Shown here: positions 1,836 to 39,368 of the stretch, piece by piece
Layout of the letters: every line of letters begins with the position of its first letter
Numbering within the stretch: position 1 is the first letter of the stretch
NCBI GenBank assembly: GCA_001567355.1
Contig: JYNZ01000005.1
Span: 67,981 to 131,980 of the forward strand
DNA: 64,000 nucleotides
Direction of reading: 5' to 3'
Source: a candidate division WS6 bacterium OLB20
Lineage (GTDB): Bacteria > Patescibacteriota > Dojkabacteria > B142 > OLB20
The notes under the pieces: generated by a model
What the model was told of the DNA's origin: nothing
Database searches by the model: none
What the model saw: the letters and a program-made list of their open reading frames with translations, nothing else
Translations under genes and position numbers: made by a program

Positions 1836-2863
1836 TGGCAGATAACGCTCTTCCACCTTTATTTCCAGCACGAGCATTCTCAGGAAGTGAGAATGGACTT
1901 ATCCATCCGGATGCAATTCCGGTAGCACGATTTGAAGCACCACGCGATATCAGATCCCCATTGAGCCGCTCACTGGAGGAGCAGCTTGCACATGAGGATG
2001 AGCTGGTTCCCGTGCCACTTAGCATTAATCCTGATGTAATCTTTGAGCTTGATGCAGAAGGCATTCAGACTTATGAGGCAGTGCTCGAAGCATATCTGCA
2101 GAAAAAGGGGGTCGACCCGTCAACCATGGATGTGTCAACAGAGGAAATATTCAAGATGACCTATGAGCTCATCTCGTTTGCATCTGGTGAGCATGTAGAC
2201 GACCTGCCGACACCCGCTGCAAAGGACACCCTGAATCTGGACAGCCCGCCACCGACCAAGTGCAATATCTTTAACAGCGCCTATATCCATATGTTCGACC
2301 TGCTCAGCCGCAAAATGGGTCGCGAGGACGTTCCTCAAAAATACCGGTTGCTGCTGACTCCAGCGAATTACATCAACCACGATGTTACAGGCACAATCTG
2401 GCATGCTCATATTGCTCTCGTAACAGCAGATTCTGATGGAACGCTTCATACAAGCCTAATCGATCCGTACCATGCTGAAACAGACGAGGGCGGTCCTGCA
2501 GAAATCTCTGCGCTGGACTTTACAGAGGACAGAGGAACCGATGCTCTCATCAGCTTATTGAAACGCAGGGAGGTAAGACATACAATCACAACCCCTGGTT
2601 TCTTAAGCAGTTTATCGCAGCAGCAGAGGCAAATCCTGGCCAGATGGATATCAATACAATCAAAAGGATCAGGCAGAGCATCTACCGCAGCCGGTCACGT
2701 GGCGACAACTACGAAATCAACAGACTTGACTCACATATCAGGTCTCTTGAGGCAATTGACTCACCCACATCAGAAGACCTGGATATGCTGTATGACACAA
2801 GACGGCAACTTAATCTACTCATTTACGAACGTGCCCTGCTGTCAAACCACCTGGACCATCTGA
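1835..2863 (+). CDS. Hypothetical protein; the C-terminal roughly 70 aa look non-protein-like and overlap a second ORF in another frame
   Basis: The ORF is translationally coupled to the HAD gene. It is acidic with no recognisable domain. The tail (…WICCMTQDGNLIYSFTNVPCCQTTWTI) is compositionally odd. Confidence 0.4.
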   Translation: MADNALPPLFPARAFSGSENGLIHPDAIPVARFEAPRDIRSPLSRSLEEQLAHEDELVPVPLSINPDVIFELDAEGIQTYEAVLEAYLQKKGVDPSTMDVSTEEIFKMTYELISFASGEHVDDLPTPAAKDTLNLDSPPPTKCNIFNSAYIHMFDLLSRKMGREDVPQKYRLLLTPANYINHDVTGTIWHAHIALVTADSDGTLHTSLIDPYHAETDEGGPAEISALDFTEDRGTDALISLLKRREVRHTITTPGFLSSLSQQQRQILARWISIQSKGSGRASTAAGHVATTTKSTDLTHISGLLRQLTHPHQKTWICCMTQDGNLIYSFTNVPCCQTTWTI

Positions 2864-2901
2864 TGAGACTCGTTGAACAGCCTGATGAGACCCGGACCTG
2901 A
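2644..2901 (+). CDS. Small charged, helical ORF (85 aa) that overlaps the 3' end of the previous gene in another frame. It is either a separate gene or the true C-terminus after a frame change.
   Basis: Its translation (…RIRQSIYRSRSRGDNYEINRLDSHIRSLEAIDSPTSEDLDMLYDTRRQLNLLIYERALL…) is more protein-like than the overlapping tail of 1835..2863. A GAGG lies 14 nt upstream of the ATG. Confidence 0.25.
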   Translation: MDINTIKRIRQSIYRSRSRGDNYEINRLDSHIRSLEAIDSPTSEDLDMLYDTRRQLNLLIYERALLSNHLDHLMRLVEQPDETRT

Positions 2902-2941
2902 TAAGTAACCGGTGTCACTCAGAAAAAGTCCGGGTTCACTG

Positions 2942-3541
2942 TTAGAGTGTCTGTTTGCTCAGTTCGTAGAGACCGGGGTTGCCTGTAGAATCAGGGATAA
3001 CCTCATAAAGAACCACATACAGGGGTTCATCCGCCTCTGAGTATGTTACCGGTCCGTGATACCAGCTCAGTGTCGCTGTACCGTCAGATGAAACCGCGAC
3101 AGTGTTGGGATTAAACACAAACTGATTACTTTCAGCCAGCTTGCGGTCATTATCCGTATAGAGTTTAAACTGAAGAACCGTGTCGCTGCTGAGACTAAGA
3201 TCGGTGATGTCAAACTCGACAGAAAGCTGTGTATCGCTGTCAGTCCCACCTGGCTGCTGCCCGCTACCGGATCCGTCGCCCGGCTGAGGTGCTTCATTGC
3301 CGGCGCCGGCGGGTCGTCTCGTGACGGGAGGAACATATCTGCTGTCAGGATCATTAACACCAGGTTCGTAAACATCAACCGGACTGTTGTATACCGGTTG
3401 CGGTGAACCGCTGAAGATGACCAGACTGGACACGGAACATACCGCACAGCAGAGGATGCCGAATACGGACACAAGACATCCAATCACCAGGATTTTAATC
3501 AGACCGGAATCAGATGATCCGTTTGGAGTTGCGGAGGCCAT
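2942..3541 (-). CDS. Membrane-anchored hypothetical protein (N-terminal TM, Pro/Gly-rich linker, extracellular domain)
   Basis: A signal-anchor helix is followed by a low-complexity PGDGSGSGQQPGG linker and a roughly 100-aa C-terminal domain. Confidence 0.5.
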   Translation of the reverse strand: MASATPNGSSDSGLIKILVIGCLVSVFGILCCAVCSVSSLVIFSGSPQPVYNSPVDVYEPGVNDPDSRYVPPVTRRPAGAGNEAPQPGDGSGSGQQPGGTDSDTQLSVEFDITDLSLSSDTVLQFKLYTDNDRKLAESNQFVFNPNTVAVSSDGTATLSWYHGPVTYSEADEPLYVVLYEVIPDSTGNPGLYELSKQTL

Positions 3542-7770: not shown

Positions 7771-7997
7771 AATACGTTCTTAAGACCGGCAATTGTAGCA
7801 TTGATTGGGTTTTTCTCCTACCCGAGACCGCTTCAGAATGACAGTTCCGCAACACAATTATGAAAGTCTTCTGCGAGAGGGCTTCAAGGCAACCTGACAC
7901 AAAAGCAGCCAGGAGACCGAAACTATTCCGAAGGAAAGTCATAGCTAACCACCCTCGAATAAGTTTGCACCACAACATCTTTGCGAGAAGTGTATTT

Positions 7998-24365: not shown

Positions 24366-24638
24366 CTATTTATCCCTATATGATGCGATCAGAGCAAGGA
24401 TCTCGTTCTTGGACGGCTCACCTGTCAGGCGTGCAAGTTCAGTACCGTCACTGCCGATGAAGATAAACACCGGCATCACATCCTCCTCTATTCCATATTT
24501 ATCGATCAGTTCAGGATGATCATCATACTCAAAATACTTTGTTTCAAGCCATGGATTTTCCGCTTCTATTTCCTTCCAGCGGGGACGCATTACGTTGCAG
24601 GAGTTGCACCATACGGCGCCAATTTTAAATACGGTCAT
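24366..24638 (-). CDS. Small thioredoxin-like protein (WCNSC active site)
   Basis: 90 aa Trx fold with a CxxC motif. It is translationally coupled to the downstream DsbD-fusion gene. Confidence 0.6.
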   Translation of the reverse strand: MTVFKIGAVWCNSCNVMRPRWKEIEAENPWLETKYFEYDDHPELIDKYGIEEDVMPVFIFIGSDGTELARLTGEPSKNEILALIASYRDK

Positions 24639-34894: not shown

Positions 34895-35624
34895 TTAATT
34901 CTGTTCATCATCCGACAGCAGCCGAAGTTCAAGATTGGTCGGGTTGAGCCCCTGCTCGAGCAGCCATGTTTCTATTCTCTTATCTGCACCCGTCAGGATA
35001 AGCAACCCGACAACAATAAGTATCACACCCAGCACTTTTTTTGAATGTGCCATCAGGGTTGGCAAGCCAGCGCAGACGCTTAACCGCATCCTGCCCCAGC
35101 CATGCAATCGCCAGCAAGGTTACAGCCATTCCCAACGTGTAAACAAGCAGATTGATCAGACCGACTGCAAAGCTTTGCGGAAGTATGGTCGCCAGAATCA
35201 CTGTGTACGTCGGACTGCAGCTTGAAAATACCGGTCCAAGTGACATGCCGATCAGCACAGAGCCGATAACTCCATCACGTGTACCTGCCTTATGCAGAAG
35301 ATTGTCAGATCGTGAGCTTAATCCCAGCTTTACGTTAATCCAGTCCCACAGACGCGGGAACAGCGTGACAATTCCAAACCCCAGGATCAGAAATCCGGCA
35401 ATCGCCGTCCATACCTGTGGAGGTACCATGATCAGTAACGTTGACGCTTTGAGAAGCAGTGTAAACAGTATGATTGAGACCGACAGCGATGCAATGATGA
35501 TCAAGGCCCGCCTTCTGCTGCCGCTGGTCAGTGAGCTGCCCAGGATAACCGGCAGTACCACGATGACACAGGGTGAAAGTATGGTCAGAAACCCAGCCAG
35601 AAGGGAGATGAAGAGATATTCCAT
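34895..35624 (-). CDS. ccdA: CcdA/DsbD-family membrane thiol-disulfide electron transporter, with a 1-nt frameshift in a T7/A7 homopolymer at 35036..35042
   Basis: N-terminal SPCV Cys motif. The annotated frame ends in a Cys/Trp-rich junk tail. Removing one A joins it to the 34895..35107 ORF, giving …FKKVLGVILIVVGLLILTG…, the canonical CcdA C-terminal helix. Confidence 0.7.
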
Positions 35625-35639: not shown

Positions 35640-36203
35640 TTAAGTAAGTTGCGCGACAATGTCATCAAGTGAAAATCCGCCTGACCATTTTTTAATCAGG
35701 TTTCCCTGGGCATCGACCTGGACAAGAGTGTGCTGGTAGGTAACGCCGTATTTCTGTTTCAGCTGGGTGTAGGTATCGTAATCGGTTTTAAGGATAGTAA
35801 GATCTGAGGGAATTTCGTCGAGGGAACCGTTAATACTGTCATTGAGTATTTTGCAGGTCGGGCACCAGCTGGCAAGGAAGAAGAGAACAACATCACCATT
35901 GCTGGCGTTTGCAAGCAGACGTTCATCGTAGTCCACGTACGAGCCTGACTGAGCGCTATCATCCTTCATCTTGTCATCACCATCCATCTTGTCATCGCCT
36001 TCCATCCTGTCGTCATTCTTCTCCATCGATTCACCATCCATCATCTTATCGGCTGTACCGTTTGAACCCTGGTCCGGGTTTGTGCTGTTGTTACCGGCAT
36101 TTACCAGCAGTATTCCTCCGATTGAGAGAATGATAAGAACTACAACGGCAAGCACGATGTACATCACTGTGTTTGACGATTGTTGCTGCGCCTGGTGATC
36201 CAT
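35640..36203 (-). CDS. Membrane-anchored TlpA/ResA-like thioredoxin (WCPTC)
   Basis: N-terminal TM, an acidic repeat region (DDRMEGDDKMDGDDKMKDD), and a Trx fold with WCPTC. Confidence 0.7.
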   Translation of the reverse strand: MDHQAQQQSSNTVMYIVLAVVVLIILSIGGILLVNAGNNSTNPDQGSNGTADKMMDGESMEKNDDRMEGDDKMDGDDKMKDDSAQSGSYVDYDERLLANASNGDVVLFFLASWCPTCKILNDSINGSLDEIPSDLTILKTDYDTYTQLKQKYGVTYQHTLVQVDAQGNLIKKWSGGFSLDDIVAQLT

Positions 36204-36256
36204 TACGGGGACTGTTCATATGTAATATCTGTCGTTATAGTACCCGCGCAGTATCG

Positions 36257-36280
36257 CCATGTCAAGTCAACTTGACATGG
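36257..36280. promoter_or_regulatory. Perfect 11-bp inverted repeat CCATGTCAAGT-CA-ACTTGACATGG between the PP2C stop and the trx start
   Basis: Dyad symmetry with a 2-nt spacer. 17 of 22 positions are identical to the site at 37375..37396. Confidence 0.45.
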
Positions 36281-36285
36281 GGTCG

Positions 36286-37314
36286 TTATTTCAGTCTGGG
36301 GGCTTTCAAAATCACAGCTGTAATGTCATCTTTATTCCCACCTAGTTGTGCCTTGCGCCTCAAGGCTCGCGCCGCAGAGCCCACATCGCTACCCAGCTGC
36401 ACACGTTCTTGCGCGTCCGTCTCACCATTCCGGTCACCTTTTATTCCGTCAGAAGTTACTGCACAAACAGTGCCGGTTACGGTCAAAACATTTTCTCTCA
36501 GGTAATCAGCCATGGAATGGTTCCCCATTCCATGCATAAGAAATACACCTCCCTGCTCTCCTGGAGGAATTACTGATGACACTTCTGATCCGTTTGTCTG
36601 CCCCAGGTACAAAAGCCCGGTATCGTTTGCAGAACCAATTGTATAAACCATAATCCTTGAGCTACCTCTCGCATCCGGATGGGGGATTACGAGCCCCATC
36701 TGCAGTGTAGTCTGCCCCAGAAAATCATGTCCGGTTTTTTCCTTGTGGTTGTTCGCAACCACATCAAGTCGCAATGCAGCATATTCCGCAGCGTCCAGAG
36801 CAAGTTGACCACCCGCCTCGTATGTCGGGTCTTCACTTTCGTCTTCAGAGTATATGGCAAGCTCTTTTCGAACTCCTTCTTCATCCTCTACTTGAATCTG
36901 TCTGCCAGGAAAAAGCATAGGCAGAATGTTCTGACTTTGCTGGAGAGAATACCTGAAGGACTCGATCGCTGAGTATACTGCGACTCTGGAGGCAGTTCCT
37001 GAATCAACAGCTACTGTTTTGTAATCCATCATGCTGACACCGTCAGCAATTGCGAACAGCGGGATATCTATCTGCTCACCGTCAACCCAGACAGTAAACA
37101 GTTCAACCGATGCAGCGTCCTGCGGGAGGTGCGCCTCTGATGTCCTCATCAGGATCTCAGCCTCGCCTCCTGAGCGGCCGGTCAGATTTTCGCCAAAGTA
37201 ACTTCCTCTTTTTGCATCGCGTTTTGTATCACCAAACAGTTCACGTCTGTGTTGTGTTCCAAGACCTTCCTGTTCTTTAGAACGGAACCTCCCAAAAAAT
37301 CTGTCAAGTGCCAT
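36286..37314 (-). CDS. PP2C-family Ser/Thr protein phosphatase
   Basis: PP2C motifs …FAIADGVSM…, …MHGMGNH… and the C-terminal …GGNKDDITAVILK. Confidence 0.7.
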   Translation of the reverse strand: MALDRFFGRFRSKEQEGLGTQHRRELFGDTKRDAKRGSYFGENLTGRSGGEAEILMRTSEAHLPQDAASVELFTVWVDGEQIDIPLFAIADGVSMMDYKTVAVDSGTASRVAVYSAIESFRYSLQQSQNILPMLFPGRQIQVEDEEGVRKELAIYSEDESEDPTYEAGGQLALDAAEYAALRLDVVANNHKEKTGHDFLGQTTLQMGLVIPHPDARGSSRIMVYTIGSANDTGLLYLGQTNGSEVSSVIPPGEQGGVFLMHGMGNHSMADYLRENVLTVTGTVCAVTSDGIKGDRNGETDAQERVQLGSDVGSAARALRRKAQLGGNKDDITAVILKAPRLK

Positions 37315-37374
37315 GAGGCAAACGTATCAAATTGTTAATGTTACTATAGCTCCAGCAGAGGCATGGTACAATAC

Positions 37375-37396
37375 GGTGTAAAGTCAACCTTACATG
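37375..37396. promoter_or_regulatory. Second copy of the dyad motif (GGTGTAAAGT-CA-ACCTTACATG), overlapping the XRE start codon
   Basis: Imperfect inverted repeat that shares the TGTnAAGTCAACnTnACATG core with 36257..36280. Confidence 0.35.
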
Positions 37397-37609: not shown

Positions 37610-37973
37610 ACTCCGCGAAAATCCGCTTACTGATATTGCACTTGCGCTGACACTGCTTGTTCTGCTGCTGGTGGCGTATAACCCGCTTCAGCTGCTTATG
37701 CCGGACATGATACTGATCATTCTCTCCGGTGCGATCGCGTCGGTACTGGTGTTGTTTGTTGTACTCGTATGGAAGGAGCAGGACTACGATGAACGGGATA
37801 CACGCAACAGGCTTATTGCCGGCAAATATTCGTTTATAGCCGGGACTGTGGTTCTGGCTGTCGGAAACATTGTGCAGCTGCTGCAGCACGAGATGAACAT
37901 CTGGCTGCCGCTGGCACTTGCTGTCATGGTAATAACAAAGATGGTGAGCCTTATTCGTCTTGAGCGATCATAG
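37602..37973 (+). CDS. Small 3-TM membrane protein coupled to the XRE gene
   Basis: Its ATG overlaps the XRE stop (ATGAATAA). This is the common XRE plus small membrane protein pairing. Confidence 0.5.
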   Translation: MNKLRENPLTDIALALTLLVLLLVAYNPLQLLMPDMILIILSGAIASVLVLFVVLVWKEQDYDERDTRNRLIAGKYSFIAGTVVLAVGNIVQLLQHEMNIWLPLALAVMVITKMVSLIRLERS

Positions 37974-39077: not shown

Positions 39078-39368
39078 TTAAAACTGCGGAACAAACGGTG
39101 CCGGCGGTTCCGGTGCCCTGTCGTATAGCGGCTGTTCCGGCTTTGCTGCAGGTTGATCAAGAACAACACCGGGGTCCGGGATGCTCAGATCGGCGCCGTT
39201 CAGCTGCCGCGACACCAGCTGCAGCAAGTAGTCCCTGAAAGGAATCCACCTGCTGACATCGGGCATTCGTAAAATTTCCATATCTGAGTATATCATGTTG
39301 ACTGTAAAACCTGACACCCTCTGTCTTGCATGATATGGTAGTATCAATCTATACGAATGCACAACCAT
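39078..39368 (-). CDS. Hypothetical small protein
   Basis: ORF only. Confidence 0.2.

Follow-up and report, generated by a model that had tools for sequence, protein, structure and literature searches.

The 64,000-nt stretch analysed here (the window), positions 67,981 to 131,980 of contig JYNZ01000005.1 from the candidate division WS6 bacterium OLB20, contains two short operons that face away from each other: on the minus strand a thioredoxin gene (trx) followed by a ccdA-like gene, and on the plus strand the gene of an XRE-type regulator followed by that of a protein with four transmembrane helices (the 4-TM partner). Between the two operons lies one minus-strand open reading frame (ORF), referred to as the orphan ORF, and a palindromic element occupies each of the two junctions, site 1 on the trx side and site 2 on the XRE side (Table 1). 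As argued below from sequence comparisons, these two palindromes are very probably binding sites of the adjacent regulator, a CylR2-like repressor.

Table 1. Genes, palindromes and predicted promoter elements at the locus (window coordinates).
Feature	Positions	Strand	Remarks
CcdA/DsbD-type membrane electron transporter, second regulated gene (proposed)	34980-35624	minus	sub-cutoff Pfam matches
Membrane-anchored thioredoxin (Trx), first regulated gene (proposed)	35640-36203	minus	Pfam Thioredoxin, E = 1.1e-10
Predicted sigma-70-type trx-ccdA promoter	36237-36265	minus	best match of the region, 10/12
Site 1	36257-36280		perfect palindrome CCATGTCAAGT-CA-ACTTGACATGG, 11-bp arms fully complementary
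Site 1, putative operator core	36260-36277		18 bp, TGTCAAGTCAACTTGACA
Orphan 342-aa ORF between the dyads (previously labelled PP2C)	36286-37314	minus	no profile match
Extended -10 element of the XRE-4TM operon	37364-37372	plus	TGgTACAAT, 4 bp 5' of site 2; inferred by reading the sequence
Site 2	37375-37396		imperfect copy GGTGTAAAGT-CA-ACCTTACATG; final three bases are the XRE start codon ATG
Site 2, imperfect 18-bp dyad	37377-37394		TGTAAAGTCAACCTTACA; ends on the A of the XRE ATG
Single-domain XRE/HTH_3 regulator, 71 aa	37394-37609	plus	Pfam HTH_3, E = 6.5e-17
Four-TM partner, 123 aa	37602-37973	plus	first 8 nt shared with the end of the XRE gene, ATGAATAA

The thioredoxin carries a WCPTC motif, an N-terminal transmembrane (TM) or hydrophobic helix and a linker rich in Met, Asp and Lys; its Pfam match, active-site motif and N-terminal helix identify it as an exported or anchored CxxC thioredoxin. 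The linker is encoded by direct repeats at 35959-36054 (18-nt period, three copies, 71-100% identity; …DKMMDGESMEKNDDRMEGDDKMDGDDKMKDD…), a comparable Met-rich linker of the MMKKDDAMMEK type is present in every Trx orthologue of the related loci considered below, and the segment could act as a sacrificial oxidant sink or bind Cu(I). The product of the second gene scores just under the Pfam cutoffs for both DsbD_2 (23.6 versus 24.9 bits) and DsbD_TM (E = 1e-3) and has no NCBIfam match; it contains an SPC motif, and its positional orthologues at L081 and L024 match DsbD_TM clearly (L-numbers label loci in other genomes or metagenome contigs).

An earlier start of the XRE gene is ruled out by an in-frame TAA at 37379-37381. 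Its product is a bare HTH_3 domain, devoid of cysteine and of any ligand or sensor domain, and any signal must therefore reach it via a partner. When a profile of 40 homologues was compared with all PDB sequences, the top match was CylR2 of Enterococcus faecalis (1UTX, E = 8.3e-21), and BLASTP aligned the window protein itself with CylR2 at 43% identity over 61 aa (E = 2e-19); judged by its sequence, the regulator is a member of the CylR2 family. Homologues at 50-75% identity number in the hundreds, and among the 40 in the profile the segment TRQT(I/V)IAIEKG(N/S)YTPS, which spans the recognition helix, is near-invariant (RQT..IE.G.Y.PS).

Both palindromes had been pointed out in an earlier, sequence-only reading of the window, and both are present as it described them: a perfect 11-bp inverted repeat between the trx start and the stop codon of the neighbouring ORF, and a copy overlapping the XRE start codon which, by our own manual count, is identical to the first at 17 of 22 positions (a repeat comparison gives 85% over 20 nt). 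Site 1 begins 5 bp past the stop codon (36286-36288) of the orphan ORF, and 57 bp separate the end of its 18-bp core from the trx start codon (36203, minus strand). The core pattern put forward in that reading occurs without mismatch exactly twice in the window, at sites 1 and 2, and with up to three mismatches eight times, as against 1.98 expected, a number that none of 100 shuffles reached. Under a position weight matrix (PWM) built from 95 family sites of other genomes, site 1 is the best 18-mer of the window (27.6 bits) and site 2 scores 22.6 bits, compared with 17.5 bits for the highest score over 50 shuffles; the next-best 18-mer reaches 8.4 bits, that is, the PWM detects no further operator copy in the 64 kb. 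A chance origin of the resemblance between the two sites is excluded. The three-mismatch matches at 7882, 21070, 39291 and 47502, considered as additional sites, were rejected, all of them scoring below 8 bits; the one at 39291-39308, in the trhO-leuS intergenic region, is dyad-like and is probably a chance occurrence.

The location of site 1 upstream of trx-ccdA was rightly seen in the sequence-only reading, whose account was nevertheless incomplete, since the minus-strand half-site TTGACA is at the same time the predicted -35 hexamer of that operon (36265-36260), followed after a 17-bp spacer by the -10 hexamer TACTAT (36242-36237). On account of this coincidence, a repressor bound at site 1 would exclude RNA polymerase from the promoter. 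At the other junction a putative extended -10 element lies 4 bp before site 2, and the transcription start of the XRE-4TM operon is predicted to fall inside it; the same placement, right after the -10 and abutting the start codon, recurs at L030, L040, L047, L067, L081 and L082.

Absence of the dyad upstream of orthologous genes had been named in the sequence-only reading as an observation that would speak against an operator; on the contrary, the dyad proves to be conserved before the orthologues of both the XRE gene and trx/ccdA. We compared 80 genome loci with XRE homologues (551,691 bp), which come from many classes of Patescibacteria as well as from some Gammaproteobacteria-labelled metagenome-assembled genomes, spirochaetes and archaea, and found one recurring 18-bp dyad in the 90 nt 5' of the XRE starts, TGT[A/C]AAGT-NN-ACTT[T/G]ACA. 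Altogether 118 18-mers in these loci match it at 13 or more of 16 positions, and 49 of them, from 40 loci, lie between -150 and +5 relative to the XRE start, which corresponds to a density of 3.95 per kb in this 155-bp stretch versus 0.128 per kb elsewhere. Most of the dyads found elsewhere are gathered in another sharp cluster, at +545 to +730, just past the XRE-4TM pair, where they lie 45-80 bp 5' of a third gene, the orthologue of the window Trx or, in some loci, of CcdA. The Trx orthologues share an N-terminal TM helix, a Met/Asp/Lys-rich linker, the motif (A/S)WCP(T/S/I)C and a KYGVTYQHTFVQVD...KKWSG motif.

The composition of the putative regulon emerges from 83 related loci, mostly of Patescibacteria, in which the dyad is found in the XRE promoters of 42 and before the trx/ccdA orthologues of 41. 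A 4-TM partner follows the XRE gene at 66 of these loci, and genes for CcdA (55 loci), Trx (44), MsrA (14) and MsrB (14) are, like the partner, situated within about 4 kb. There are 105 sites of at least 16 bits, 88 of which were automatically assigned to promoters of these genes, the remainder lying mostly before long-linker Trx genes. Five msr genes in the 83 loci are directly preceded by a dyad; near-perfect dyads stand before msrA (L014 3019, L025 2599, L019 7362) and msrB (L048 577), and others before extra Trx genes (L003, L033, L069) and Met-rich secreted proteins (L032 6566, L072 2772). Sites before trx, ccdA, msr and genes for Met-rich proteins therefore define a functionally coherent regulon of outward-facing thiol and methionine-sulfoxide reduction. 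By eye, some Trx orthologues or regulon proteins (L037 4654-5571, L051 4642-5436, L072 about 2805-3390) carry extra extracytoplasmic domains, one with an HPAHIHVGTCP segment and the others peptidoglycan-binding-like (LQ.FL..KGFL…GYFG..T..A).

Promoter geometry is conserved together with the dyad. At 37 of the 41 trx/ccdA-proximal sites, a TAnnnT element that agrees with TATAAT at 4 or more of its 6 positions lies 16-18 bp past the right half-site TTGACA/TTTACA, as compared with 7.1% of random positions passing the same test, and the right half-site is therefore the -35 box. XRE-proximal sites take one of two positions, or in some loci both: over the -35 or, as with site 2, right after the -10 and across the transcription start; either is compatible with steric repression. 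Of 60 exact occurrences, 59 have a 4-bp gap between the half-sites, a fixed spacing as expected of a rigid dimer.

The association was also examined in the reverse direction, starting from the motif. Metagenome contigs were scanned for the exact pattern TGTAAAGTNNACTTGACA and 120 loci were read. At 61 of them an XRE homologue follows the TTGACA half on the same strand at a distance of up to 700 bp; these distances group at 18-78 bp and, where a small multi-TM gene intervenes (the cylR1-cylR2 order), at 365-616 bp. An XRE homologue is found within 2.5 kb of the motif at 70 of the 120 loci, and no XRE-like match is present in the 272,661 bp that lie more than 3 kb away from it. Enrichment is thus seen from the side of the regulator and from that of the motif, from which it follows that the link between the two is specific in both directions. 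At 26 loci (e.g. L087, L099, L108, L113, L127, L163) the dyad stands before unrelated small multi-TM genes that precede the XRE gene; 23 of these genes encode two or more TM helices, and many carry [D/Q]DE[L/M]..R after a TM helix, while in the XRE-first order DER occurs in 21 of 32 next ORFs. With differing membrane genes beside one and the same dyad, a single DNA box therefore pairs with several partner families.

The nearest relatives (L081, L082 and L083; XRE identity 59-75%) have a simpler arrangement, in which ccdA-trx and XRE-4TM diverge and only one dyad is present in the roughly 80 bp between them. That of L083 is identical to site 1 at 18 of 18 positions and carries TTGACA-17-TACTAT on both strands. 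Once the three intergenic regions were aligned with the two window sites, the dyad alone was conserved and the flanks had diverged, in what is, at the level of sequence, a classical phylogenetic footprint. The window thus resembles an otherwise single divergent control region into which the orphan ORF has been placed, with a dyad at each junction, and the ORF was either inserted between pre-existing tandem sites, of which there are examples elsewhere (e.g. L002, L034, L039, L080), or accompanied by a duplication of the site. No mobility genes are present, and there is no homology between the flanks of the two window sites beyond about 20 bp.

The sequence-only reading had called the intervening gene a PP2C phosphatase, a label that could not be verified: the orphan ORF has no match in Pfam (E up to 5), NCBIfam or the PDB sequences (phmmer, E up to 10), and the only hints in favour of PP2C are a UniRef name starting with "PPM" and a DDITAV motif spotted by eye in the C-terminal part. 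A search of 5.8 billion clustered proteins retrieves the ORF itself only, its single-sequence AlphaFold2 (AF2) model is unusable (pLDDT 35), and L081-L083 have no gene at the equivalent position. Either a lineage-specific insertion or rapid evolution of the gene may account for this, and the ORF may be co-regulated from the site 2 region.

The partner encoded behind the regulator belongs to no Pfam or NCBIfam family, the matches to SdpI (Pfam E 0.017-0.075), DUF6442 and DUF6773 having been dismissed as sub-threshold noise; it nevertheless represents a sizeable family of 498 representatives at 50% clustering in 1.84 billion proteins, 359 of them with E<=1e-10. Residues D63-E64-R65 are invariant in the family, and P28, M33, E59, G81, W101, L102, L106, M109 and K113 are near-invariant. 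The AF2 model is confident (pLDDT 85), with helices at 8-26, 35-57, 65-94 and 101-122, and the positive-inside rule would place DER at the cytoplasmic start of helix 3 and the NPxxxxMP and QxxxHxxDxW loops on the outside. A Foldseek comparison of the model with the PDB retrieved generic four-helix bundles only, none at E<=0.001.

The 8-nt overlap of the XRE stop with the 4-TM start is retained in the relatives (L081 1620-1627, L082 6209-6216, L083 472-479) and amounts to 4 nt at L205; at L204, whose 4-TM gene is a close relative, the locus sequence begins inside the XRE gene and offers no upstream DNA for comparison. Conservation of the overlap suggests coupled translation and a fixed stoichiometry of the two proteins, and this coupling makes the 4-TM protein the obvious candidate for the signal partner; by analogy with CylR1, it is proposed to be a signal transducer or anti-repressor. 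As a separate observation, positions 35920-35934 and 37781-37795 form a perfect 15-nt inverted match, each sense strand reading GGACTACGATGAACG and encoding D-Y-D-E-R, once in Trx (VDYDERLL) and once in the 4-TM partner (QDYDERDT), there coinciding with the invariant DER of the family; by a rough estimate, about 0.01 such matches would be expected by chance in 4.5 kb. Elsewhere in the window, a second thioredoxin-like CxxC motif (VWCNSC…) occurs near 24611 on the minus strand with no dyad close by.

The closest parallel is the CylR1/CylR2 system of E. faecalis (Haas et al. 2002 and Rumpel et al. 2004, both cited in PMC3709268). In the cyl control region of plasmid NZ_CP124896 (L208 1181-1199), the palindrome TGTCAAGTG-T-CACTTGACA ends 16 bp before the cylR1 start codon, and the opposite strand presents TTGACA-17-TAATAT facing cylLL, one half of the palindrome being the -35; in work by Rumpel and colleagues from 2004, CylR2 is said to bind this particular palindrome. 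The two systems have in common a tiny single-domain XRE helix-turn-helix (HTH) protein (66 aa in CylR2, 71 aa here), 7-bp half-sites TGTCAAG/CTTGACA that are identical, a half-site that also serves as the -35 TTGACA of the operon under control, a small membrane protein with several TM passes encoded in the regulator operon, the divergence of target and regulator operons (exactly so in L081-L083) and the lack of a kinase or phosphorelay. They differ in the separation of the half-sites (4 bp here, 5 bp in the cyl box), in gene order (the XRE gene precedes that of the membrane protein here, the reverse of cylR1-cylR2), in the partner (four TM helices and 123 aa here, three and 94 aa in CylR1, with no demonstrable homology), in the host, a bacterium of the Candidate Phyla Radiation (CPR; WS6/Dojkabacteria), and in the target, which is Trx-CcdA, elsewhere Msr, instead of a lanthipeptide toxin. 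There are no lanthipeptide genes beside the window sites, and CylLS'' cannot be the signal. CylR2 acts as the repressor of the cytolysin promoter PL; cylR1, whose product is predicted to be a small membrane protein, shares a transcript with cylR2 and is needed for induction by CylLS'', the transfer of the signal from CylR1 to CylR2 being described as not understood (PMC3709268, PMC5454873).

Taken together, the conservation of the dyad, its co-occurrence with the XRE gene and the homology to CylR2 lend support to the proposal, first made in the sequence-only reading, of an autoregulated dimeric HTH repressor with a second target promoter that places Trx-CcdA under an XRE-type switch. We consider it likely, on these sequence comparisons, that a CylR2-type dimer binds site 1, occluding the trx-ccdA -35, and site 2, blocking initiation of its own operon. 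The 71-aa homodimer would then act as a repressor on both dyads; bound at site 1, it would keep an extracytoplasmic thiol-reductant pathway, made up of the anchored Met-rich Trx and CcdA, switched off, and bound at the weaker site 2, which extends across the predicted transcription start as far as the start codon, it would exert negative autoregulation and may also affect the divergent orphan ORF. Derepression would follow an envelope signal, most plausibly oxidised exposed Met or Cys, passed on by the translationally coupled four-TM protein in analogy to CylR1/CylR2. That the four-TM protein transmits an envelope signal relieving repression we hold to be about an even chance; that oxidative damage at the cell surface is this signal, as hinted by the content of the regulon, is a more tentative suggestion.

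Several observations weigh against this picture. At the trx promoter, both strands of the palindrome hold a consensus -35, and its conservation could partly reflect promoter function; neither the upstream half-site nor the strict 4-bp spacing, however, is a feature of promoters. Neither an MsrA nor an MsrB signature is found in the six-frame translation of the window. An hhalign comparison of a 58-sequence 4-TM profile with CylR1 aligned 28 columns around DER with a probability of 1.2% (E=0.044). The direction of control is not guaranteed either, given that the homologous bacteriocin regulator GakR has been reported to be an activator (bioRxiv 10.64898/2026.09.04.749385). The remaining points concern site 2, whose 8-bp arms contain one mismatch, and more in the 10-bp arms of the sequence-only reading, and whose -10 is omitted by a consensus promoter scan for want of a -35 match alongside; furthermore, an XRE-proximal site of at least 16 bits is present at only 18 of the 41 loci that have a trx/ccdA-proximal site. 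In 40 of 41 loci the higher score belongs to the trx-proximal site (mean 25.8 bits), an order of strength that the window follows, and the redox operon is therefore to be seen as the primary target and autoregulation as variable. Of the two halves of the original claim, autoregulation is the weaker and the less universal.

These points about site 2 lead to the alternative that fares best, namely that only site 1 is functional, site 2 being a decaying remnant left when the ORF came to lie inside a formerly single divergent promoter region, and XRE-4TM is not autoregulated. Besides the imperfect arms, the lower PWM score, the isolated -10 and the many family loci without a strong XRE-proximal site, it can draw on the closest relatives, in which a single dyad lies between trx and XRE. 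Against it stand the score of site 2, which exceeds that of every shuffle and is in line with the 17-29 bits of XRE-proximal sites elsewhere, the independent recurrence of its position at the six loci listed above and its retention of all except two of the 14 strongly conserved PWM positions; all in all, we regard a mere relic as unlikely.

Somewhat less likely still is that the XRE protein acts as an activator or dual regulator, or that an unlinked regulator recognises the dyad. The site centre at about -38.5 of the trx promoter is near the positions of class II activators, and the report on GakR points the same way; yet a promoter with a consensus TTGACA and a good -10 needs no activator, sites right over the transcription start fit repression only, and CylR2 is a repressor, whereas the tight co-occurrence of motif and XRE gene across phyla argues against an unlinked regulator.

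A role in RNA, with site 1 forming an intrinsic terminator or a stabilising 3' hairpin and its likeness to site 2 being incidental, is very improbable. Positions 36257-36280 are indeed listed as terminator-like on the plus strand, with a 10-pair stem and the tail GGTCGTTATT, and the repeat begins close behind a stop codon; however, no plus-strand gene ends there, and on the minus strand, that of the ORF, the stem is followed by CGATACTGCGCGGG, so that site 1 fails as an intrinsic terminator for lack of a U-tract. Moreover, the loop is merely 2-4 nt long, the half-site sequence itself is conserved across genomes without compensatory changes, and the site lies upstream of genes with a -10 at a fixed distance. 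That the two copies, direct repeats (17/20) flanking a 1.1-kb orphan gene absent from relatives, are the terminal repeats or target duplication of a mobile or inserted cassette without regulatory role was rejected as having next to no probability, in view of the lack of a transposase or integrase gene, the absence of flank homology past 18-20 bp, the promoter-proximal positions of both copies, typical of the family, and the occurrence of the same repeat as a family-wide operator at hundreds of loci without the orphan ORF.

The preferred reading, a CylR2-like repressor acting on both sites, connects the locus with several known systems besides cyl. SdpI/SdpR of Bacillus subtilis and HdrM/HdrR and BrsM/BrsR of Streptococcus mutans are membrane-protein/repressor pairs that operate without a phosphorelay. 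They are similar to the present pair in their two-gene operon, which codes for a small DNA-binding autoregulator and for a polytopic membrane protein controlling the former, presumably by sequestering it, and dissimilar in their DNA-binding folds (ArsR, LytTR), there being no sequence relationship. The F. nucleatum locus for the repair of oxidised extracytoplasmic proteins reportedly encodes a two-component system. Such CcdA-Etrx-MsrAB repair is known from S. pneumoniae (PMC3914529), S. gordonii (PMC7034828) and F. nucleatum (PMC9239216), and shares with the loci described here the pairing of a CcdA transporter with a surface-exposed thioredoxin; in the related loci, msrA/msrB likewise cluster with trx-ccdA, behind the same putative operator. 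The differences are that Trx is here anchored by a TM helix and provided with a long Met-rich linker instead of being a lipoprotein, and that the window has no msr gene. AurR and GakR, small Cro/C1-type HTH proteins, are proposed to act on inverted repeats overlapping promoter elements (bioRxiv 10.64898/2026.09.04.749385); their repeats are different (20-bp arms for GakR), GakR is reported to be an activator, and neither a membrane partner nor a redox regulon is involved.

Text searches of the literature returned no paper linking an XRE/CylR2-type regulator to ccdA, trx, msr or Patescibacteria, nor any such regulator for CcdA-Etrx-MsrAB systems; TGTAAAGT was matched by unrelated primer sequences only, and an apparent "XRE" in PMC6211008 was in fact "Xred". 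As a kind of system, a repressor of the CylR2 type that has a membrane partner and a palindromic box is already known, whereas the Trx-CcdA-Msr regulon, the partner family, the fixed 18-bp geometry and the breadth across CPR and other phyla appear to be undescribed in the searchable literature.

A broader reading, which we put forward as no more than possible and rather speculative, is that CylR1/CylR2-like pairs, consisting of a polytopic sensor and an XRE protein of about 70 aa with a TGTAAAG-N4-CTTTACA box, constitute a widespread and ancient form of phosphorelay-free signalling, which in Patescibacteria/CPR governs a regulon devoted to oxidative repair outside the cytoplasm, made up of Met-rich anchored thioredoxin, CcdA, MsrA/MsrB and Met-rich sacrificial proteins. 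In this case the 4-TM protein would sense the oxidant directly by its near-invariant exofacial residues P28, M33, P34, H96 and D99, the invariant cytoplasmic D-E-R would release or sequester the repressor, and Msr-dependent re-reduction of the sensor would close the feedback loop.

These findings bear on organisms that have very few regulators and are hard or impossible to grow alone; if correct, they would provide one of the first assignments of a regulator, its operator and its regulon in CPR/Patescibacteria, in a system small enough, with a 71-aa protein and an 18-bp site, to be tested in vitro or in a heterologous host. They would also imply that the CylR2-type repressor, so far that of an enterococcal virulence toxin, is part of a broader family which uses nearly the same box with varied membrane partners, and a fresh approach to how CylR1 signals to CylR2 is offered by the natural variants, which number in the hundreds and in which the DER motif is invariant. 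To judge from the sequences compared, a repressor of this family appears to switch an outward-facing protein-repair pathway in this and in many other CPR bacteria, which points to the regulated, surface-directed repair of Met and Cys as a conserved need of episymbiotic ultra-small bacteria.

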